IMG/VR virus record: IMGVR_UViG_3300042465_001115
Span: 1 to 59,549 of that record
DNA: 59,549 nt
Direction: 5' to 3' (one strand)
Origin: a virus
Taxonomy: Duplodnaviria > Caudoviricetes
Below, in pieces: positions 5,760-17,079 of this stretch. The notes beneath the pieces are model-generated. The model did no database searches and was not told the origin of the DNA. It worked only from the letters and a program-made list of their open reading frames with translations. Each line of letters opens with the position of its first letter. The stretch's first letter is position 1. The position numbers were made by a program, and so were the translations under genes.

Positions 5760-8633
5760 ATGATGGACACGTTGAACTTCCTTCAGCGGGTTCTTCCGTC
5801 ATCGGGTTTCTACGTCACAGCCGTCATCAACACTGGTGAAGGTGCAAGGCATGGATTCTTCTCGACGGTAGAGGACCTCACACGGGCGGTGACCGCTTCC
5901 GACAAACGCGGCAACAACACGTACTACGCCATCTCAGCGTTCGCTGAGAAGGGGCGGCGAACACAGGACAACGCACGGGCAGTCAAGGTACTGGCGCTCG
6001 ATGTGGACTGTGGACCGAACAAGCCATACGCCACGAAGGGGGACGGTGTCGCTGCACTGGCGAAGTTCCTCAAGGACACACGGCTTCCACGGCCGATGAT
6101 CGTGGACTCAGGCAACGGACTGCATGTTTACTGGTGTCTGACTGAGGAAGTGCCGCTCGAGCAGTGGAAGCCCGTGGCACTTGCGCTCAAGGCTGCGTGC
6201 CAGGACAGGGAGTTCCACATCGACCCAGCCGTACCCGGCGACAGTGCCCGCGTACTGCGACCTGTGGGGACGACCAACCCGAAGAGCAGCACACAGGTCA
6301 CGCTACTGGCCGATGCGCCTGACTACGACCTGAGCACCATCACCGCAGCACTGGCACCATTCGCAGCCAGGACGAAGCTGGGTGTTCCCAGCGTTACGCC
6401 GGCGACGGTGCAGCACACATCCACCAGCACGTTGACCAGTGCGTTGCAGGTCAAGCAGGACTTCCCTCCTGCCATCGCAGGCGTGGTATACGCCAAGTGC
6501 CAGCAGATCAACTGGGCGGTGAAGAATCAGGCCGAGGTGCCTGAGCCCCTGTGGTACGACCTGATCGGTGTGGCTGCGCACTGCACGGAGCCTGAGGCTA
6601 CGGCCATCGCATGGAGCGACCAGCACCCGGACTTCAACGCACAGGTCACGCTCCACAAGTTGGAGCACTGGCGCAACTCTGCCACCGGACCAACAACGTG
6701 CAGCAAGTTTGAGGCTGACAGACCGGGCGGCTGCAAGGGATGCAAGTTCAGAGACAAGATCGGCTCACCCGCCCGCCTGGGTGTGCAGTACCAAGAGGTC
6801 AAGCCCAGCACGGATGTGCCCGCATTCGTCTCGACGGATGTGCCCCTGCCGCGCCCGTTCAAGCGCACCGTGGATGGGCTGAAGGCTGTGATCGATGACA
6901 CCGACATCGACGTGTGCAAGTTCGACATCTACCCCGTAGCCTATGGCAAGGACGAGGGTCTGGGCTACGAGACTGTGCGCTACTGCTGGAAGCGACCGCA
7001 CTCAGGGTGGACCGAACTGTCGCTGCGGCAGGCGTACCTCACGGTCCCTCGCATCAAGGACTTCACCACCGAGATAGCTGACCAGGGCATCGTGCTCGCT
7101 GGCGTTCGACAAACGGAGTACTTTCAACTCATGCTGCGCTCGTACATGGATGAACTACGGCAGAAGCGTGCCATGACGAACCTGTACTCCACGATGGGGT
7201 GGAAGGACAACTTCTCTCAGTTCGTCATTGGCGACACGATCCTGCGCCGTACCGAGGACGGTACCGTCACCTCTGAAGATGTCACCCTGTCTGCTGGCAG
7301 CGCCCGCTTGGGCCATGAGTTGTATGGCACCGCAGGGGAACTCAGCGAGTGGATCGACTTCACCCGCCTCATCGACCGCACCGGACTGCACGCGCACTCC
7401 TTCGCCCTGGGTGTAGGTCTGTCGTCTGCGTTGTATGCGTTCACCGGGCTCAAGGGTCTCACCGTGTCGCTGTACGGTCCGACCGGTGGTGGTAAGACGC
7501 TGGCCCAGTACTGGGTGCAGTCGATCTACGGCAACCCGGACAAGCTGCACTTCGCAGCCAAGTTCACGCAGAACTCCCTGTTCAGTCGTATGGGGCTGTA
7601 CTGCCACATGCCCATGACCATCGATGAGGTCACCATGATGGACGACAAGGAGGTGGGAGACTTCGCCTACTGGGTGTCGCAGGGCAGGGACAAGGCGCGG
7701 ATGACCCGCAATGCCGAGGAGCGAGACGCACGTACCTGGGCTATGCCTGTGGTGGTATCCACCAACAAGTCCATGCAGTCCAAGCTCATCGCCTCCGGCC
7801 TCGACACGGACGCACAGATGGCCCGTATCCTGGAGGTCAGCGTACCCCCGCACCCCATGTTCACCAAGGACAGCATGGCAGGGCGGCGGATCTATCAGTT
7901 CCTCATGAGCAACTACGGCCACGTCGGTCGAGCATTCGTCAGCAAGTTGCTGGAACTCGGTCCTGACGGATGCAAGGCCGCCATCGCAGAAGCGACGGCC
8001 ACGTTCAACAAGCGGTACCAGTGCAAGTTCGCAGGCGAGGAGCGGTTCTGGGAGCAAGCCATCATCATGGCCGACCTTGCCTCCACGATGGCGAAGGACT
8101 GGGGCCTGATACAGCACGACCCGCGCCCCGGCGTGGAGTGGACCCTAGCCCAGGTGGGTGCCATCAGGCGCACCGTGCAAGAGAGCAAGCTCGATGCGTT
8201 CGACATGCTGTCGGACTACCTCAACGACTGCGCGGACACAGCCGTCACCGTCATGCACACCGGCACGCAGAAGCCCACCGTGGACTTCAGCCGTATGCCA
8301 CGCAACGACATCCGTGTGCGGTTCGACGTGTACCGCAAGAGTGCTTCCGAGGCGTTCAACTACGGTACGGTCTTCCTCGACCGGGCGCACTTCCGGCGCT
8401 GGCTGTCACAGCGAGGCGCCGACTACAAGACCTTCATCCAGGAACTTACTGAGGAGTCTGCGATTGCCACGCCTTCGTCGAAGAAGGCGTACCTCGGCAA
8501 GGACACCCCGGCTAAGCTCGGTCAGGTCTACGTGATCGGCGTGAACCTGAACCACCCGCGCTTGCAGGGCATCCTTGACGAAGCAGACCAGTCCTACGAG
8601 AACATGGCCTTCGGCCAACTCAAGGCTGTGTGA
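5760..8633 (+). CDS. Primase-helicase (AEP/RepB-like primase, Cys-rich domain, DUF927-type P-loop helicase)
   Basis: LDVD, SGNGLHVYW, RVLRPVGT, CSKF..GCKGC, GPTGGGKT, TIDE. Confidence 0.85.
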   Translation: MMDTLNFLQRVLPSSGFYVTAVINTGEGARHGFFSTVEDLTRAVTASDKRGNNTYYAISAFAEKGRRTQDNARAVKVLALDVDCGPNKPYATKGDGVAALAKFLKDTRLPRPMIVDSGNGLHVYWCLTEEVPLEQWKPVALALKAACQDREFHIDPAVPGDSARVLRPVGTTNPKSSTQVTLLADAPDYDLSTITAALAPFAARTKLGVPSVTPATVQHTSTSTLTSALQVKQDFPPAIAGVVYAKCQQINWAVKNQAEVPEPLWYDLIGVAAHCTEPEATAIAWSDQHPDFNAQVTLHKLEHWRNSATGPTTCSKFEADRPGGCKGCKFRDKIGSPARLGVQYQEVKPSTDVPAFVSTDVPLPRPFKRTVDGLKAVIDDTDIDVCKFDIYPVAYGKDEGLGYETVRYCWKRPHSGWTELSLRQAYLTVPRIKDFTTEIADQGIVLAGVRQTEYFQLMLRSYMDELRQKRAMTNLYSTMGWKDNFSQFVIGDTILRRTEDGTVTSEDVTLSAGSARLGHELYGTAGELSEWIDFTRLIDRTGLHAHSFALGVGLSSALYAFTGLKGLTVSLYGPTGGGKTLAQYWVQSIYGNPDKLHFAAKFTQNSLFSRMGLYCHMPMTIDEVTMMDDKEVGDFAYWVSQGRDKARMTRNAEERDARTWAMPVVVSTNKSMQSKLIASGLDTDAQMARILEVSVPPHPMFTKDSMAGRRIYQFLMSNYGHVGRAFVSKLLELGPDGCKAAIAEATATFNKRYQCKFAGEERFWEQAIIMADLASTMAKDWGLIQHDPRPGVEWTLAQVGAIRRTVQESKLDAFDMLSDYLNDCADTAVTVMHTGTQKPTVDFSRMPRNDIRVRFDVYRKSASEAFNYGTVFLDRAHFRRWLSQRGADYKTFIQELTEESAIATPSSKKAYLGKDTPAKLGQVYVIGVNLNHPRLQGILDEADQSYENMAFGQLKAV

Positions 8634-11600
8634 GTTCCTGCGGGTCGATCCCGTTAAGCCGCAGCATCTCCAGCGTCTCAGGGCGCACGTTCTTGGGCGC
8701 AGACTTCAGGTAGCGCAGTGCCGTGGGGCGCTCTGCTTCCAGGGCTGCGCGGTTGGCCGACCGAGCGAACTGCGTGATCTCCAGGCCAGTGCCCTTGGCG
8801 CTGACGTTCCACGCATCAACATCTGCTCGGATCTGTGCCATCCGCTCGGCGTCGCCATCCAGCTTCGCCTTGACGTACGCCTGAACGAAGTCCGTCTTGA
8901 CTGCCTTGGAGTACTCAGCCACGTACTTCGACAGACGAACGATGTCGTTCTGCTCGGTGGCGATGGCAGGGTAGAAGCCCATCATGCGGGCGATGACGGT
9001 GTGCGCTCCCACGTCTGCGGTGACCACCTGCCCCTTGGCGTTGGTGATGCGCCCGTCCTCCATGTAGGCATAGCCGTCAGCGAAGGCCCGCACCGCAGCC
9101 AACGGAGCGTTGCGCAGGATACCCGTCAGTGACGTAGTGTCGGGGCGCAGGCCAATGACCTCGGCTCCGTACTGGGTCAGAGATGCGGCTGTGCCAACAA
9201 GTCCTGCCATGCCGCCGACCACGGGGCCAGCGAAGTCCTGCAACTCCTGGATGGGAGAAGCCCCGGCACGGAACGCTCCGGTCAGCGGGAGCAGATCGCC
9301 CATGCCCACCCGCGTGGACACCGTGGCTCCCGTCATCTTGTCGAGCACACCCTTCATCACGTAGGGCGATACGCCCGGAGCCACCGAGTCGATCCACTCG
9401 GCAGCAGCCTTCTCCACGCTTGCCATCGGCAGGCCGAGCATCTGCGCGATGGTGTCCACGATGTCCATCAGGTCTTCTGCGAACGGCAGACCCTTGAGTC
9501 CGCTGAGTAGCAGGAGGAAGCCGAGCATCATCAACTGCCCATCCTTGGGCATGTTGCGCAGCAACTCCACCGTGATGATGGCGAACTGCTTGTACACGAA
9601 CACGTATTGCAGTACCGGACCCCGCGCCATCGTGGGGCGGTTGAACATCGCGTACTCACCCTGGGCTGTGTTCACAGCCGTGCGCGCAGCCTCAGCAGCT
9701 TCGGCAATCGCCTGTTCCTCGGACAGCCCCTGAGCCAGGGCTCGGTCCTTCTCCATGCGGTACGCAGCCAGGGCGGTTGCGCGGCGGTTGAGTTGCTCCG
9801 TGTAGGAGAACATGCTCATCCACAGCTTCACCGCAGCCTGGGCCTTGTTGCTGAACACCTTACCACGTGCGGTGCCAACCAGGGCGTTGAACTGCGCAGC
9901 TTGCAGCGTGCCCTGCTCCGTCTGTGCGAAGAGGAACTGCGCCTCGTCCTCCGTGAGTCCGTACTGAGCCCACGTCCCGTCACGCATGATCTTGTCGAAG
10001 TCCTCGGCTTCAGCGAGCTTCGGGCTGCGCACATCACGCAACGCTTTCCACAGTGCGTTGGCAGCCTTCGCCATCCCGTAGCCACCACCGAACCCACGCG
10101 CCGGGTTGTACGACGCGAGGTACGGCAGGCTGTGCGTGGGGATGGAGATCAGGTTCAGCGCAGCGGAAGCCACGGAGCCACCGAGTTGCATCAGCACGGT
10201 CACCAGCTTGAGCCGTGAGCCAGCCTCACCGAACAGATCCTCGGTCGAGTCCGTGATGTTGGACGTGTCGCTGTACCAGCGCAGCACTTCCTTGGCGTAC
10301 TCACGATAGTCCTCACCGCGACCGAGCGTGGGCACTTCCTCCCCGGCGACCTTCACGGTCTTCTTGCCAGCACTGGACGCCATGTACCTGTACATATGCG
10401 CGTACTGGTCATACTCCCGTTGTGCGCGAGCCCGCTCTCCATCCGTGGCTGCGTTGTCCACAGCATCTTGCAGCGCCTGGAGCCGCTCCGGATCACCGAA
10501 CCAGTTGTCGTTGTTCAGCAGGATGTCGTCCAGCCGGTTGCGGTACAGCTTCTTCGCAGACACATGCGCCGAGGTCTCCAGGTGTTCCGACACCGAGCGG
10601 ACCACATCCTTGTCCCACCCCGGAGTACCCGAACGCTGGAGGTTCTTGCGAGCACGGCTGTTCTGGCTCGTCAGCGTGGTGATGATGCGCTCTCGCACTT
10701 CAGGTGCGAGGTTCACGTTGAGGCGGTTCAGGACGTACACGAACTCGTTGAAGTTCACGGCTTCCGTGAGGTCCGGGCTCTGCCGCACACGCGACACTTC
10801 AGGTCGCAAGCTCACGGTCACCTCAGCACCGTCCTCGTCGTACAGCGTCCACTCGTTGTCACCACCGAACGTCGTCTCCAGTTCCTCGGCAGCAGCCGTG
10901 GCTTCACTGCGCGACTCAAACTGGAAGTACGGCAGGATGGAGCGGACGTTCTCGCTCAGTGGTACCGGGTTGCCGCGCTTGTCGTACGCCACGAGGCGCA
11001 CCTGCTCAGTACCACGGCGGGTGAACGGAACGTACGCACCAAGGATGGTGCGCTTGGCGTAGTAGTCAGCGTTCTGCGCCTGGAGGTCGAACAGGAAGAT
11101 GTCCCGCACAGCCTTCTGCACGCGGAAGGACTGCTGCTCATTGGCGTCCTTGCTACCACTGAACTTCGCCCGCAATCCAGGCAGGGCAGCACGAACGTCG
11201 TCGTACTCCGCACCCTGGAACTGCTCGAAGTCGCGCTTCATGTCGCCCGTGATGCGCGGGTCCCCCATCCATGCAGCGAGCACGTCATCGTTGAAGAGCG
11301 CACGACCGAAGGCGATAAGGAAGTCTTCCGACTCCTTGGCAGCACGCTTGTTCAGGTTCACAGCAGCCGAGGCGACATCAGCACCATCGAACCGCATGTT
11401 CCGGTACCGCTCAGCCACCTTGCGGATCGCCGCAAGATCCTGCTCCGTGAATGCGTTGGCCCCCCGACGGCGAGCGTTGAGATCCCCGATGACGCGCTTG
11501 GCCTCGGTCTGTGATGCCTCGTAGTTCGACAGCATCAGGTCGATGGCAGCCTCGTTGACCGCAGCACGCTGCTCCTCGTAGATCTTCCAGACGTTGCTGT

Positions 11601-14600
11601 TCTCATCGATGTCGCGCTGGAAGCGGACCTTGGAGATGTTGTCCTTGCCGTCGTCGTACTCGATGTCGAAGCCATTGCGGAACTCTTCAGCAGAGACCAT
11701 GCCCCGCTTCTCAAGCTGATCCCGCACCTTCGTGTCGAGTTGGATGTTGCCCATCGCATCGACGTACACCAGATCATCGAAGGACTTGATGATGTCGTCG
11801 GTGGCTTGCTTGGAACGCAGCAGGGCAGCATGGGCCAGCAGTTCGCCAGCCTGGAGCTTCTCCTCCTCGGTCACACCGCCGCCGTATCCGAAGACGGTCG
11901 GTGTGTGGGTGAGCGTGGTCATGCGGCTGTACTTCGACAGCAACTGACGTGCGTACTGCTGCTGGTTCTCCAGCAGGCGGTAGATCTCGCTGAGGCCGAA
12001 GCTGCGACGGGCCTTGTTGCTCAGCGTCTGCACGTGCTCCAGCACACGAGCCACAGTACCAGGAACATCTTCCCGCTTGCCGAACGCCCGCTTGCCGAAC
12101 GCCTCCATCGCGCCGAGCAGACCGCTGCTGCCGCCGAAACGTTTGGCTCCGTTACCTACAGCGAACGCACGCTCCAGGGCATCGCCGTAACCAGCGCGGG
12201 CGTACATACCCGTACCACGATCCGACTCCATGAGTTGGATGTCTTCGGCCACAGCGCGGGCGTTGAAGAAATTGCCTCCCTCACCACGGCGCACGTACTT
12301 GCGTGCGAGGTTCACGAGGTAGCGAGCTTCGTCGTCCTGGAACTTCAGCCCCAGCTTGTTGAGGAAGTTCTTCAGCGTGTTCCAGATGCGTGCGATGAGC
12401 GACGTATCCAGCACGGCAGCGTTGTCAGCAACGTACTCCTCGATGGCTTCCAGCTTCGACATGCCCTGCACGGACATCATCGCCTCGACCGCAGACTGCA
12501 CGTCAGCGTCTGCGTCGTAGATCCGCTCCAGGATGGCGTCGAGTTCCTTGCCGGGGATCACGGCTCGGAAGCCGAAGTGGCCCATCGTCTCGTGCGCCAG
12601 GACGAACCGCAGTTGCTGCTCGGTGCGGACGAAGTCGGAGAAGACGATGACCTCCTTGCCGAACGAGTAGCCCACAGCCTTGATGGTGCCGAAGTCACCC
12701 TGCTCACGCGCAGCGGCTGCACGCCGGTACAACTCAGGGTTGCGGGCCTTCAGGTCTGCCGCGTTGGCGTAGATGTGCACCGTGGGCTTGCGCATCAGCT
12801 TCGACAGGAACCCCTTGACCAGCAGGCGGATGCGCCCCACCGGCACGTTCTTCGTGATGGGAGTACCGTCGTCGCGGAATGCAGCCCCGTTGGCATCGTC
12901 GTACTGGTCGTACAGCCGTCGAGATGGATCGAGGCGAGCGGCGGCTTCCTCAGCAGCCAGGGCAGCGGCTTCGTCCCGCTGTGCCTTCTCCAGTGCAGCC
13001 TGTTGCGTAGGCGTGAGTTGCTGCGTGCCGATGATGTACCGACCGGCAGACTTGATGATCTTCGGCTCGCCGTCCGCAGTGAAGTAGTCCGACAGCGGGT
13101 ACCCACGGACGATGTACTTGCGCCCCTCAGCAGAGACCTGAGCGTACAGCGTGCGGGCAGCATCAGCCAGCGACGTGAACTCGATGCCACGGGCGACCCT
13201 GACCTTCTGGTTGAGCCGGGTGATCTCCGACACACGGGAGATCAGATTGTCGATCAGCAACCCCAGCATGGACTGCGGGGTGTGCGCAGCACGGTAGACC
13301 GTGGACTCACTCTTCGATACGTTGCCAGGAGTTGAGCCGACAGTTGCCGGGGCCGCCACGTCACCGAGCTTGCGCTGCGTGTCCGCAGGGAGGTTGGACA
13401 GCTTCAGCTTGCCCGCAGCCACGAGGTCCTTGGCCTGCTCCAGCGACAACCCGCTCAGGGTGGAGCGGATGTTGAACAGCATCCCACGCGAGGAGGCGTA
13501 GGAGAACCAGGGCTTGGGCGTGCCCTTGTTGGCACCACGGGTGTAGACAGCCTCCAGCCGCATGGTCTCGTTGACCTGGGCCAGCACGACATCATCGAGC
13601 GCGGCACGCTGAGATTCGGACAGCGTGGTGTTGCCCAGCCATGCGCGGGCACGCTCAACCAGAGCGCGGGTGTTGGTGTCCTCGGTGGTGAAGAAGGCGT
13701 ACTCGGAGATGAGTCGCAGCGCCTCACGCACTTCCGGCGTGACCTTGGCAGTTACGGCTTCATCGACCGTGTTGATCGCATCGCCTAGGGCATCCGTGGG
13801 TTCTGCCGTGACTTCAGCCTCGGCGTCAGCGACGATCTGCGCAGCCAGTTCGCCCGTGGCTTGGTTCTTCGCAACGGCATCACGCCACCGCGTCTGCAAC
13901 TCAGCCGGAAGGTCAGTGAAGGGCATGTCCTCCATGCCCGCCCAGCGTTCTTCAGCAGTTTCAGTCGGGGCGGGGGCCGGAGGTTGTAGCCCCGTGAGCA
14001 CCCCAAAATCTTCGGTGCGAAGTTCTTTCTTGTCGGCACCAATTGCACGTGCCGCTTCTTCGCGATTGTAGAAGTTGCCCCTGGTGTCTACGAAGCCAGC
14101 TTCCCATTCTTTCAGATCAGATGCGTACCCACCGGGCAACTTGTACCGGTTGTGGACAGGTCCAGTCTCAACTACTTCCCCAGTTTTGCGGCTACGAAAC
14201 GCCGCTGCCTTCATTTGTGGGGCGGGGGCGGCGGCCCCCTCGGCTTTTGGGGGCGCGGGTTCCTTCTTCGGTGCAGGTGCCTTCTTCGGCGCTACTTCTT
14301 CTTTCTTCCCGCGCTTGAGGGCTGCACCTTTTCCGGCAGCTTTCTCTTCACTGGGTACTTTCTTTCCCACTCCTGCGCGAGTTTTGGCTGCTGGCTGTGG
14401 AGGTACCGGCGCTGCGCTTGGCTTTTGAACGGCACGGGGTTCTCCTTGCGAGATGGGACTTAACTCATTGGCGAGCTTCTGTGTCTCCTTGAAGTTGGAG
14501 AGGAAGAAGCGATCAAGTCCAGTGTTGCGGTACTCGGTCTTGTAAACCTCGCCATTGGGGTCAAGAAATTCAACGGCTTCCATGATGCCCGTGGTGACAT

Positions 14601-17079
14601 CGTTGCCGTTCTCCCAGACCGTACCGTAGACGACCAAGCGCCCACGATATTCCTCCACCCGGTCAACCACCACCTTCTGGCGACCACGGGTCGGGTTAGC
14701 CTTGGTGATGTTGTCATTGAATGTGAGCACATCCCCCTTCTGGGGAAGATTCTGGAGCTTGACAGCAGCTTGCCCAACAACAGCGCGAACAGTATCTGCA
14801 ACGCTTGGGGCCTCCTTCACTTCGACAGCAACGACCTTGGCACCACGCTTGAGTCCACGAGCACCAGCAGTCTTCTTCGCAGGTGCAGGAGTGGGTGCAG
14901 CAGCAACCTTCCTCTTGACACCCGCAGACTTGAGCGCGGGCAGCGAGGGCTCCCCTTCGGCGGTGAACATCGGCAGTTGCAGCGTTGCCTGCCGGATACC
15001 ACGGTCGGGCTGCGCAGCCGGAGCGGGCTGCATCTTGCGCCCACGGCGCAACTGCCCTGCCTTCGGCGGAACCGGAGCCTGACGGCGCGTGAACAGCGGC
15101 AACTGCCTCGGCTGACGGGGGGTGATGGGCACCATCGGCAGGGCCGGTGCGGGCGCAGGACGCTGCGCTTCCGCCATGATGTCGAGTTGCCGCTGGTTCG
15201 CAGCCTGGATAGCCATGCGCTCCAAGTCCGCTTCACGCTGCGCAGCCTCCTGTGCCTGCCGCTGGGCAAGGATCTGCTCCTCCTGGCGACGACGCATTGC
15301 ACGCTGCAACGCATTGCCCACAGCCGTGGGCGCAGTAGCCTCAGGTGCAGGCGGAGCGAACTGAAGCTGTCCTTGCGCGGCAGCTTCTTGCGGGGATAGA
15401 CCAGTGGGTGCCACAGCACCGGGCACAGGCGGAACTCCGGGCTGCATCCGGGTTGCCAGTTCCTGTGCCGAGATGGTGCCACCGAAGACATCGAGCACGC
15501 CCTGCGTGCCGGGAGCGCCAGGGGGCACGTTGCCCGCCTGACGCAGCATCTGGTCTGGGTATGCCTGCCCTTCTGGGGTGACCATCATCACCGTACCGCC
15601 GACAGGCGTAACGGCTGGCGTGGGTCCAGGGAGAAGCGGTATGGCAGGGGACCCAATACCAACGGGAGGAGTCGGAGGCGTGGGAGCGCCGGGAGGCCAA
15701 GGCGTCCCAGAAGGGGGCATCGGTCCAGGCTGGATCGGAGCGAGCGCAGTACCGGGTGTGGGCGGCACAGGAGGCGGCGGCTCCGTAGTCGACCCAGGGT
15801 CGAGCAGGTTCTCTGCCTTGCGTCCACGCAGGTTAGCCACAGCACCGATGGGACCGCCGACACCGAAGCCTGCGGCGAACGAGTTGATCAGGCGCTTCTG
15901 CGCTTCGTCGGACGTGAGGGACTGTCCGGAGATACCCAGTAGGAGCGCCTCCTGCCCAAGCTCCGTGGAGCCTTCGGCAGTACCACCTACAGCCCCGCCA
16001 ATCGTCCCACGCTTCAGAAGCTCACCTGCACGGGCGCGCAGTGGGGTACCGGGGGTGATCGCACGAGGAGCACCAAGCCCGCTGAGCACTCGGCTTGCAA
16101 GCAGGAACTCAGGCAGAGTCTCTATCGCCGCATATGGGATCGACCCAGCCAGAGCCTTCAGCCGCGCATCGACATCGTCAGCATTGGCCCCCTGGTCCCG
16201 CAGTTCGCCGTAGATGTCAGCCGCACCCGTGGCAAGGTTCTGTGTGTACGACGCAGCCGTGGCACCAGCAATGCCAGCAGCTTCGCGCAGCAACTTGTTC
16301 TCGGTAGCCGTGAGCGCCTCACCGGCCGCTCGCTTGCGTGCTGCCGCCATCACAGACTGCTTGAACGCAGACTTTCCAGCGAGACCAGCGAGGGCTGCGC
16401 CTGCACCAGCGAGTGGGTTGCCGCCTACTGCCGTACCAGCAGCGAAGCCACCGAGACCAACGGCCACGGACTCCAGCAGGTTGGGTCCCTGCTGCGCGAG
16501 GTTGGCAACGAACCAGTCGAGCACACCTCGGTTGGGCTCCCCGATGTCCGTGAACTGCCGCTCGAACGGAGAGGTCTTGGCGAGATCGGCTTCCTGTTGA
16601 GCGACGATGCGCCCACCAGTTTCTTCAGCACCGGCAAGCTGCAAGCCCCGGCCCGCCAGGGCCTGCATGGCGTCAACACCACGCCCGAAGTTCTTCTTTG
16701 CCAGCCGCCACAGACTGGGATTGCGGATCGACTCCAGGTACTGCCCATACGCCTGCGCGTCCAGGGGCACCCAATCCCCCGAAGACGGCAAGCCCGTGCC
16801 GGGGGCAGACAGGAGCTTTTCGGACTCCAGTGCACTCGCAGCGTCGTCGGCATCGAACACAATGCCTTGCACGAACACCTTGTTGGACGACGGGCTGACG
16901 GCGATGGAAACCGGTGCCTGCGCCGTAGGCATCGTGAACTGACTGCGTCCACCAAGGCGCTCACCCATCACGGCAAGATCCGCAGTGGACGGACCAAGTC
17001 CTGCCAACCCGGAACCCATAGGGCCGACAGGTGCAAACGGATCGGCGGGCTGTCCTAGGGTCAGTCCTGCGGTAGCCAT
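8620..17079 (-). CDS. Giant internal virion/ejection protein, 2819 aa (polyvalent-protein-like)
   Basis: Last gene of the structural arm, after the SLT protein; HETMGH metallopeptidase-like motif; YVPFTRRG resembles the PLxRFG motif. Confidence 0.8.
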   Translation of the reverse strand: MATAGLTLGQPADPFAPVGPMGSGLAGLGPSTADLAVMGERLGGRSQFTMPTAQAPVSIAVSPSSNKVFVQGIVFDADDAASALESEKLLSAPGTGLPSSGDWVPLDAQAYGQYLESIRNPSLWRLAKKNFGRGVDAMQALAGRGLQLAGAEETGGRIVAQQEADLAKTSPFERQFTDIGEPNRGVLDWFVANLAQQGPNLLESVAVGLGGFAAGTAVGGNPLAGAGAALAGLAGKSAFKQSVMAAARKRAAGEALTATENKLLREAAGIAGATAASYTQNLATGAADIYGELRDQGANADDVDARLKALAGSIPYAAIETLPEFLLASRVLSGLGAPRAITPGTPLRARAGELLKRGTIGGAVGGTAEGSTELGQEALLLGISGQSLTSDEAQKRLINSFAAGFGVGGPIGAVANLRGRKAENLLDPGSTTEPPPPVPPTPGTALAPIQPGPMPPSGTPWPPGAPTPPTPPVGIGSPAIPLLPGPTPAVTPVGGTVMMVTPEGQAYPDQMLRQAGNVPPGAPGTQGVLDVFGGTISAQELATRMQPGVPPVPGAVAPTGLSPQEAAAQGQLQFAPPAPEATAPTAVGNALQRAMRRRQEEQILAQRQAQEAAQREADLERMAIQAANQRQLDIMAEAQRPAPAPALPMVPITPRQPRQLPLFTRRQAPVPPKAGQLRRGRKMQPAPAAQPDRGIRQATLQLPMFTAEGEPSLPALKSAGVKRKVAAAPTPAPAKKTAGARGLKRGAKVVAVEVKEAPSVADTVRAVVGQAAVKLQNLPQKGDVLTFNDNITKANPTRGRQKVVVDRVEEYRGRLVVYGTVWENGNDVTTGIMEAVEFLDPNGEVYKTEYRNTGLDRFFLSNFKETQKLANELSPISQGEPRAVQKPSAAPVPPQPAAKTRAGVGKKVPSEEKAAGKGAALKRGKKEEVAPKKAPAPKKEPAPPKAEGAAAPAPQMKAAAFRSRKTGEVVETGPVHNRYKLPGGYASDLKEWEAGFVDTRGNFYNREEAARAIGADKKELRTEDFGVLTGLQPPAPAPTETAEERWAGMEDMPFTDLPAELQTRWRDAVAKNQATGELAAQIVADAEAEVTAEPTDALGDAINTVDEAVTAKVTPEVREALRLISEYAFFTTEDTNTRALVERARAWLGNTTLSESQRAALDDVVLAQVNETMRLEAVYTRGANKGTPKPWFSYASSRGMLFNIRSTLSGLSLEQAKDLVAAGKLKLSNLPADTQRKLGDVAAPATVGSTPGNVSKSESTVYRAAHTPQSMLGLLIDNLISRVSEITRLNQKVRVARGIEFTSLADAARTLYAQVSAEGRKYIVRGYPLSDYFTADGEPKIIKSAGRYIIGTQQLTPTQQAALEKAQRDEAAALAAEEAAARLDPSRRLYDQYDDANGAAFRDDGTPITKNVPVGRIRLLVKGFLSKLMRKPTVHIYANAADLKARNPELYRRAAAAREQGDFGTIKAVGYSFGKEVIVFSDFVRTEQQLRFVLAHETMGHFGFRAVIPGKELDAILERIYDADADVQSAVEAMMSVQGMSKLEAIEEYVADNAAVLDTSLIARIWNTLKNFLNKLGLKFQDDEARYLVNLARKYVRRGEGGNFFNARAVAEDIQLMESDRGTGMYARAGYGDALERAFAVGNGAKRFGGSSGLLGAMEAFGKRAFGKREDVPGTVARVLEHVQTLSNKARRSFGLSEIYRLLENQQQYARQLLSKYSRMTTLTHTPTVFGYGGGVTEEEKLQAGELLAHAALLRSKQATDDIIKSFDDLVYVDAMGNIQLDTKVRDQLEKRGMVSAEEFRNGFDIEYDDGKDNISKVRFQRDIDENSNVWKIYEEQRAAVNEAAIDLMLSNYEASQTEAKRVIGDLNARRRGANAFTEQDLAAIRKVAERYRNMRFDGADVASAAVNLNKRAAKESEDFLIAFGRALFNDDVLAAWMGDPRITGDMKRDFEQFQGAEYDDVRAALPGLRAKFSGSKDANEQQSFRVQKAVRDIFLFDLQAQNADYYAKRTILGAYVPFTRRGTEQVRLVAYDKRGNPVPLSENVRSILPYFQFESRSEATAAAEELETTFGGDNEWTLYDEDGAEVTVSLRPEVSRVRQSPDLTEAVNFNEFVYVLNRLNVNLAPEVRERIITTLTSQNSRARKNLQRSGTPGWDKDVVRSVSEHLETSAHVSAKKLYRNRLDDILLNNDNWFGDPERLQALQDAVDNAATDGERARAQREYDQYAHMYRYMASSAGKKTVKVAGEEVPTLGRGEDYREYAKEVLRWYSDTSNITDSTEDLFGEAGSRLKLVTVLMQLGGSVASAALNLISIPTHSLPYLASYNPARGFGGGYGMAKAANALWKALRDVRSPKLAEAEDFDKIMRDGTWAQYGLTEDEAQFLFAQTEQGTLQAAQFNALVGTARGKVFSNKAQAAVKLWMSMFSYTEQLNRRATALAAYRMEKDRALAQGLSEEQAIAEAAEAARTAVNTAQGEYAMFNRPTMARGPVLQYVFVYKQFAIITVELLRNMPKDGQLMMLGFLLLLSGLKGLPFAEDLMDIVDTIAQMLGLPMASVEKAAAEWIDSVAPGVSPYVMKGVLDKMTGATVSTRVGMGDLLPLTGAFRAGASPIQELQDFAGPVVGGMAGLVGTAASLTQYGAEVIGLRPDTTSLTGILRNAPLAAVRAFADGYAYMEDGRITNAKGQVVTADVGAHTVIARMMGFYPAIATEQNDIVRLSKYVAEYSKAVKTDFVQAYVKAKLDGDAERMAQIRADVDAWNVSAKGTGLEITQFARSANRAALEAERPTALRYLKSAPKNVRPETLEMLRLNGIDPQELTQP
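14292..14435 (-). CDS. Nested +1-frame small basic protein, 47 aa (MPFKSQAQRRYLHSQQPKLAQEWERKYPVKRKLPEKVQPSSAGRKKK)
   Basis: AAGGAGA 5 nt before GTG; TAG stop; GC3 of the host frame drops over this span; absent from the ORF track (under 60 aa). Confidence 0.75.
   Translation of the reverse strand: MPFKSQAQRRYLHSQQPKLAQEWERKYPVKRKLPEKVQPSSAGRKKK

Follow-up and report, generated by a model that had tools for sequence, protein, structure and literature searches.

A probable protein-coding gene of the MPFKS family embedded in the linker of a giant phage virion-protein gene

How much credit is due to a short open reading frame (ORF) that lies entirely inside a far longer gene of a phage? The question is raised by a complete 59.5-kb IMG/VR virus record (IMGVR_UViG_3300042465_001115; Duplodnaviria, Caudoviricetes), all 59,549 nucleotides (nt) of which are here called the window. 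Its giant gene, which encodes a virion or ejection-type protein of 2819 amino acids (aa), fully contains a 47-codon ORF on the same strand, one base ahead of the host frame (host +1), that begins MPFKS and has a ribosome-binding site and start of its own (AAGGAGA-N5-GTG; Table 1). Embedded phage genes are known, Rz1 within Rz and those of phiX174 being examples; to our knowledge, few of them are well supported, and embedded genes are suppressed by most gene callers. From the comparisons set out below, it is very probable that the small frame is a genuine embedded protein-coding gene that gene finders have overlooked.

The arrangement first reported for this site, an AAGGAGA-ACCCC-GTG start at position 14435 that opens a 47-codon ORF in the +1 frame of the giant gene, is present in the sequence in every particular. 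On the minus strand the spacer ACCCC occupies 14440..14436, the GTG codon 14435..14433 and the TAG stop 14294..14292, and the host frame across the overlap reads RAVQKPSAAPVPPQP. The preliminary description had also counted by hand the codons ending in G or C, finding 35 of 47 in the nested frame and 19 of 48 in the host frame, a low value for this genome, and our recount agrees. The frequency of such codons (GC3) in the host gene is 0.736, with a median of 37 per 48 codons, and only 11 of its 2771 windows of 48 codons are as low as the overlap. The in-frame TAA upstream of the start rules out a long N-terminal extension, or a fusion made by frameshifting further upstream.

By itself, the ORF is weak evidence, because the GC-rich giant gene has 15 +1-frame ORFs of at least 47 aa. 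The same count would favour the view that there is no gene here at all, the ORF having arisen by chance in a GC-rich gene, or the synonymous constraint described below reflecting an RNA element such as a structure or a packaging signal. We regard this as extremely unlikely, since it is contradicted by protein homology to free-standing genes (E=5.7e-17) and by the codon-position pattern of the substitutions; moreover, Rfam returned nothing at E<=1 for positions 13800..15000, and a scan near the site gave no promoter-like site and one terminator-like match at chance level. A blastn search of GenBank phages with the 2 kb surrounding the site returned zero matches. It is homology and conservation that raise the embedded ORF above chance.

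The homology was traced through the peptide. Searched by tblastn against GenBank phages, it gave weak matches (E about 0.1), each of which aligns from query residue 1 and from the start codon of a small ORF that stands free, namely a 39-aa coding sequence (CDS) of marine phage 023Pt_psg01, a 72-aa CDS of Streptomyces phage FlowerPower and its relatives, and an unannotated ORF of phage C75C1. An alignment of four sequences, the window peptide and GenBank phage homologues, brought up no fewer than 414 relatives in IMG/VR contigs, of which 80 loci were retained. A hidden Markov model (HMM) built from 41 free-standing copies only, and run against six-frame pieces of the window and of 80 orthologue loci, matched the window ORF with E=5.7e-17 over model positions 2-45. 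Alignment of 91 family members shows no variation at M1, P2, S5, Q8, P17 and A20 and a conservation of at least 90% at F3 and K4; the window peptide has all of these residues. The profile of these 91 members matches 4184 representative clusters at E<=1e-3, 929 of them at E<=1e-10. Free-standing phage proteins that start with MPFKS, which the preliminary description had mentioned, are confirmed by both the tblastn and the representative-cluster searches. When three family members were used as tblastn queries against GenBank phages, only free-standing copies from three phage groups were returned, with no match inside a giant gene and no cultured nested relative.

Two samples of loci describe where family members lie. 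The first was selected by the peptide: nine of the 80 loci had no ORF matching the start-motif pattern and were left unclassified, and among the other 71 there are 28 copies nested in a same-strand ORF of at least 300 aa, always in the host +1 frame, and 43 free-standing ones, which is the tally of nested and free-standing homologues that had been proposed as a check on the preliminary description. Having been gathered with the peptide itself, this sample is biased. Twenty-two of the nesting hosts are 1261-3306 aa long (several are cut by the end of the locus) and six are 384-451 aa. Once the nest is masked, the giant hosts separate into at least two groups without mutual BLAST similarity, one window-like (9-10 loci) and one AT-rich (13 loci); conservation of the small protein thus exceeds that of its hosts. 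Five loci (L074, at 5910-7046, and L075, L079, L081 and L084) show another arrangement, in which the small gene begins about 30-37 codons into a 378-aa ORF directly after an 801-aa gene. Either the host of these copies is a mid-sized gene, or the longer ORF has been given the wrong start and the arrangement would be an overlapped one.

The second sample was chosen independently of the peptide. The N-terminal 460 aa of the giant protein, aligned from the window and four orthologues, found 106 relatives, from which 80 loci were kept; the whole giant protein as a single query confirmed no related loci, and the alignment query was needed. Twelve of these loci end before the site, which leaves 68 that are informative. 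Typical members of the MPFKS family (family 1) occupy the site in 40 of them and a divergent subtype of the same family in seven; a second family of small genes (family 2) stands there in 12, and nine have no nested gene. All 47 family-1 copies lie on the same strand as the giant ORF and within it, at host aa 670-1163, in the host +1 frame. These prevalence figures hold for the window-like cluster of giant genes only; a scan of the AT-rich cluster returned just its three input loci.

The divergent subtype (L106, L107, L108, L116, L118, L124 and L125) has altered first residues and a longer product rich in Ser, Pro and Gln. Its copies are intact, begin with GTG after a purine-rich stretch resembling a Shine-Dalgarno (SD) motif, and match the full-family HMM at E=1e-9 to 1e-13.

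Start signals are kept along with the frame. One of the motifs GGAG, GAGG and AGGA occurs at -16 to -5 of 55 of the 58 nested starts, compared with 368 of 7769 (4.7%) other +1-frame ATG or GTG codons in the same giant ORFs. Of 47 tabled loci, namely 45 of family 1 and two, L150 and L160, of family 2, 32 have ATG and 15 have GTG at model position 1; L108 and L116, both of family 1, were detected later and stand outside this table, and L108 starts with GTG. In 29 nested copies, 0-96 nt (24 in the window) separate the start from an in-frame stop upstream of it. The preliminary description had named the absence of homologues, and the loss of the +1 frame, ribosome-binding site or start from orthologues, as grounds for abandoning its proposal; the HMM matches, the 47 carriers among 68 orthologues and the retained SD motifs are the opposite of this. 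The small frame would most simply be translated by internal initiation on the long late mRNA.

A same-strand +1 overlap inside a long ORF is also the geometry used by programmed frameshifting. The product of a +1 shift would be an N-terminal fragment, some 900 aa long, that ends in the basic peptide, not a free 47-aa protein, and in L113 the N-terminal module is indeed a separate gene, of 927 aa, that ends soon after the nested ORF. Several observations nevertheless make this reading highly improbable. With a stop 0-96 nt upstream, the shift would have to fall inside the conserved module (slippery sites were not searched for); a start codon stands at model position 1 in all 47 tabled loci, and the SD motifs are conserved; and the module is found at or near the N-terminus in the clusters examined, not at the C-terminus. 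For the strict N-terminal motif, the top 150 clusters divide into 116 with the motif at residue 1, 13 with it after a short extension, which looks like a mis-called start, one with it at residue 280, and 20 that do not match the pattern. Position 1 of the profile aligns at or near residue 1 in almost all of the 150.

Substitutions over the overlap were compared among 35 unique orthologues (37 before identical DNA was collapsed), in the ungapped first 27 codons, with pairs of undefined synonymous divergence (dS), or of dS >3, skipped. The small frame has a nonsynonymous divergence (dN) of 0.33 and a dS of 1.25, hence a dN/dS of 0.27, whereas the host frame read from the same DNA has a dN of 0.535, a dS of 0.275 and a dN/dS of 1.95. 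Free-standing copies give values of 0.37, 1.535 and 0.24 in the small frame, and seven blocks of the host N-terminal module give 0.25-0.48, 1.24-1.56 and 0.18-0.41. The small-frame dS matches the values found elsewhere in the giant gene, so that the overlap is as old as the gene around it and no recent import. Variation at host-frame synonymous sites, a test that the preliminary description had suggested, shows a dip that coincides exactly with the overlap: at identical residues, synonymous differences make up a fraction of 0.45-0.70 in well-aligned parts of the host and of 0.10 and 0.21 at host aa 881-920, the nest spanning host aa 883-931 in the orthologue alignment. Nucleotide differences amount to 0.345, 0.200 and 0.437 at the first, second and third positions of small-frame codons; that they follow these positions argues against an RNA element.

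The same figures allow a further alternative to be judged, namely that the nest is a fossil or passenger, a free-standing gene swallowed as the giant gene formed and now serving as linker DNA without translation of its own. It is in keeping with such a history that the host frame must remain open and is itself constrained at a few positions, and that nine of the 68 orthologues manage without a nested gene. A fossil would decay, however, and the small-frame dS of 1.25 implies ample time for it to have done so, yet the +1 frame is intact and has a start codon in all 47 family-1 carriers, its dN/dS of 0.27 resembles the 0.24 of free-standing copies and not the 1.95 of the host frame, and SD motifs are retained far above their background of 4.7%. 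We consider a fossil very unlikely.

Comparison of nested with free-standing copies shows how the two frames share the DNA. The variability of small-frame third positions is lower in nested copies (0.437) than in free ones (0.615). Among the 55 nested and 46 free copies that remained once identical DNA had been collapsed, every nested one lacks host-frame stops, and just three free ones have the equivalent frame open; T is nearly absent from small-frame third positions of nested copies, where it would create host stops. Phe3 is encoded by TTC in 53 of the 55 nested copies and by TTT in 35 of the 46 free ones. Val is fixed at two positions of the host frame (in 52 and 47 of the 55 nested copies) where free copies read I, L, V, F or M in the same frame. 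On these patterns, both frames are constrained, the small frame far more so, and the host frame is constrained at few positions, its residues being largely dictated by the small frame. One claim of the preliminary description does not survive this comparison. Linkers of the AVQK or AIQE type, thought to recur in giant virion proteins, are the host-frame reading of the MPFKS codons and occur essentially only at the nest, so that A[IV]Q[EK] was rejected as an independent recurring linker motif. The wider proposal, that of a conserved dual-coding arrangement in the linker of the giant gene, is upheld by the HMM match, the 47 carriers, the contrast in dN/dS, the synonymous dip and the enrichment of SD motifs.

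What stands at the site in the 12 loci of family 2 (L085, L086, L087, L104, L112, L114, L115, L121, L122, L148, L150 and L160) is an ORF of 57-63 aa in the same position and frame, for example at 8264-8443 of L104, which in most copies begins with ATG or GTG after an SD-like purine-rich stretch. It matches phrog_2423 with E=2e-8 to 3e-10 and, marginally, Pfam DUF6496 (19.2 bits, below the cut-off of 24). Its relatives number in the hundreds and are mostly free-standing (65 free and 10 nested among 75 loci). The phrog_2423 or DUF6496-like family, which is not found in the window, shares with the window family the slot, the frame and the existence of free-standing relatives, and shows no detectable relation to it beyond the first four residues; homology of the two families was rejected (hhalign probability 13.7%).

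Several points weigh against the reading as a genuine embedded gene. An SD sequence is not obvious at many nested starts of the AT-rich cluster, and translation of the small frame in general is deduced from start signals and selection. Nine of the 68 orthologous giant genes have no nested gene, and a free-standing family-1 copy that might substitute for the absent one was found in none of seven genomes checked (four without any nested gene and three with family 2); together these indicate that the gene is dispensable or replaceable. Four of the seven genomes are at least 96% complete, one of them being without any nested gene; an eighth that was checked, L108, has a divergent nested copy. The pairwise statistics count related sequences repeatedly and are phylogenetically non-independent. 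Used alone, the window peptide finds no Pfam family, has best PHROGs matches at E=0.09 and 0.53, which are not significant, and in a word-indexed protein search produced 37 candidates, none at E<=0.01. As for function, searches of the PDB by sequence, with the family profile and by Foldseek matched no characterised protein in sequence or structure, and the functional proposal made below is drawn entirely from gene context and domain architecture.

In a mechanistic outline, the late structural mRNA for the 2819-aa protein would also bear the internal SD sequence and GTG codon in the +1 frame. Ribosomes initiating at this GTG would make the 47-aa basic protein, while those translating the giant frame would read the same 144 nt as a low-complexity linker, placed after an N-terminal part of about 880 aa and before a C-terminal part that ends in the PLxRFG domain. 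Selection would act chiefly on the small frame, with the host frame kept free of stops.

The nature of the small protein is suggested by a structural model and by its distribution. AlphaFold2, supplied with the 91-sequence alignment, predicts two helices (residues 6-15 and 17-26) that form a hairpin, followed by a disordered basic tail, with a mean predicted local distance difference test score (pLDDT) of 79.7 and values of 85-92 over residues 1-20. Foldseek comparison of this model with the PDB gave only noise at E>8, as is expected for a 47-residue hairpin. In Pfam, neither the window peptide (threshold E<=1) nor the giant protein matched any family, and the 91 family members gave no more than isolated matches, each in one or two members, to families unrelated to one another. 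A supposed resemblance to DUF3008 was dropped for want of Pfam support. In PHROGs, phrog_1375, a set of small phage proteins with which the family overlaps, starts with the same N-terminal motif; it matches the window peptide weakly (E=0.53) and 22 of the 91 family members at E<=1e-3 (best 2.8e-5), carries no function in PHROGs and shows no sign of nesting.

Same-strand neighbours of the free-standing copies (n=134) include portal proteins (12), large terminases (10), GroES-like proteins (6) and head-tail adaptors (3), and the named families are mostly those of head formation and packaging. Among the top 150 clusters, 69 exceed 100 aa, and these differ in what they have at the C-terminus (NUDIX, DUF5661 or no known family). 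In four longer representative proteins (P0093, P0097, P0123 and P0047), the same 45-aa module comes first and is followed by NUDIX, by DUF5661 with Gly-zipper-like segments, or by weak P-loop kinase-like domains; the module appears to act as a general N-terminal tag. Because the neighbours are mostly head and packaging genes and the module heads larger proteins, we tentatively favour a morphogenesis or virion-associated factor, whose two-helix module and basic tail might dock on packaged DNA or on the interior of the portal or capsid. As to the functions put forward in the preliminary description, a DNA-condensing core protein or a loading chaperone, gene context goes no further than suggesting virion morphogenesis. 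Co-encoding within the ejection-protein gene would couple synthesis of the small protein to that of the giant one; a specific partnership between the two is unlikely, and less likely than a general role in morphogenesis.

The product is also small and cationic, with a helical N-terminal part, properties that would suit a role outside the virion, as a membrane-active lysis peptide or a factor in host takeover. One preprint reports a cationic peptide that replaces spanins in phage phiKT (bioRxiv 10.1101/515445), and the FlowerPower homologue lies between peptidase and holin genes. Most free-standing copies, however, adjoin portal, terminase and head genes and not lysis genes, and fusions of the module to soluble domains of enzyme-like character (NUDIX, for example) are common, which leaves a translated small protein acting outside the virion improbable. 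In FlowerPower, a siphovirus (L003, NC_048706.1 27334-27552), the family member is gp48, of 72 aa, between genes annotated as peptidase and holin; unlike it, family members in environmental contigs mostly have portal and terminase genes as neighbours. A free-standing copy is also present in Streptomyces phages of the Beephvirinae.

A broader reading joins the slot to the tag. The linker would be a conserved slot for interchangeable embedded genes, either MPFKS or phrog_2423, and the MPFKS module an N-terminal virion-targeting or DNA-anchoring tag that heads thousands of clusters with varied C-terminal cargo (NUDIX, DUF5661). The free 47-aa form would then correspond to the tag on its own, synthesised together with the ejection protein and serving as an adaptor or plug in the packaging or ejection of the giant protein and the DNA. 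We think this rather doubtful; if true, it would amount to a new cargo-tagging system of tailed phages, hidden from gene callers.

Among known systems, the closest in architecture is Rz1 within Rz of phage lambda, likewise a small gene that lies wholly inside a larger same-strand gene, in the +1 frame and with its own start, as described in PMC6139136. According to the same paper, spanin pairs occur embedded, overlapped or separated and the embedded member usually goes unannotated; both Rz1/Rz and the window family have homologues as separate genes in other phages. The two are unrelated in sequence, and the 47-aa product has no Cys, no signal peptide and no lipoprotein signal of the kind that forms a spanin lipobox. 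The hosts differ as well, the window host being a 2819-aa virion protein and Rz a 150-aa inner-membrane spanin, and in the window the overlap falls in an otherwise hypervariable linker, a slot that holds two families of small genes in its relatives. A full-text literature search of limited breadth found no description of this nested arrangement; a C-terminal occurrence of the five letters MPFKS in PMC12919940 is unrelated.

Of the 68 informative orthologues, which belong to uncultured podovirus-like phages, 59 carry one of the two small-gene families. The clean signature of selection makes the locus a possible benchmark for the detection of overlapping genes, and suggests that a disordered linker can tolerate hosting a second reading frame. 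The uncharacterised family is very large (4184 clusters) and its N-terminal module is frequently joined to domains of several kinds, which points to an unstudied role of a general nature in phage morphogenesis or delivery.

The giant gene closes a podovirus-like structural operon, in which it is preceded by genes for a tail fibre, an internal virion protein and a transglycosylase-domain protein of 632 aa. Its product belongs with the PLxRFG proteins, scoring 200.8 bits against NF032893 (cut-off 100), and phrog_11358 matches the same C-terminal domain (8.8e-47). Full-length orthologues with 35-59% identity occur in IMG/VR contigs. The F116-like Pseudomonas phages, whose giant proteins are also of the PLxRFG type, share this domain at 27-30% identity (tblastn), and only these C-terminal 490 aa are common to them and the window host. 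A search of PDB sequences with the giant protein gave no match, and a suspected HExxH metallopeptidase motif was dropped after a negative pattern search.

Table 1. Positions in the window of the giant gene, its parts and the embedded small gene
Feature	Position	Strand	Basis or remark
Host gene, 2819-aa giant virion/ejection-type protein	8620..17079	-	directly downstream of the 632-aa transglycosylase-domain gene
Conserved N-terminal module, aa 1-460	15700..17079	-	five-sequence alignment; independent orthologue probe; dN/dS 0.18-0.41 in ungapped blocks
Host-frame linker, about aa 880-960, P/A/K/E/G-rich	14200..14442	-	composition; carries the overlap
PLxRFG domain, C-terminal, aa 2287-2775	8755..10221	-	NCBIfam NF032893
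Embedded small gene	14292..14435	-	GTG start, 47 sense codons, TAG stop; ORF and translation
Shine-Dalgarno AAGGAGA	14441..14447	-	5 nt 5' of GTG; host frame reads part of Q-G-E there
In-frame TAA	14460..14462	-	small frame shut 24 nt before start

Alignment of the orthologues shows the nest as a fully occupied island whose flanks are rich in insertions and deletions and poorly aligned; the overlap thus coincides with a domain boundary, within an apparently disordered linker. Immediately upstream of the nest, about 120 aa of the host (about aa 761-880; window 14440-14800) have an occupancy of 0.00-0.18 in a 35-sequence alignment and look like a lineage-specific inserted domain adjoining the overlap. 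A second stretch of low host-frame GC3, as low as the nest and rich in A, K and P, lies at window positions 14770-14915 (host aa 722-774); the idea of a relic nested start near host aa 745-760 was dropped, as no recognisable ORF homologue was present in the other frames. In two related loci (L113, 5968-8751, and L099, 6001-8589), the N-terminal module is a separate gene of 862-927 aa that is followed by genes of ordinary size, which gives the giant gene the look of a fusion made at the nest site; the separate 927-aa gene of L113 has the nested small gene close to its 3' end.

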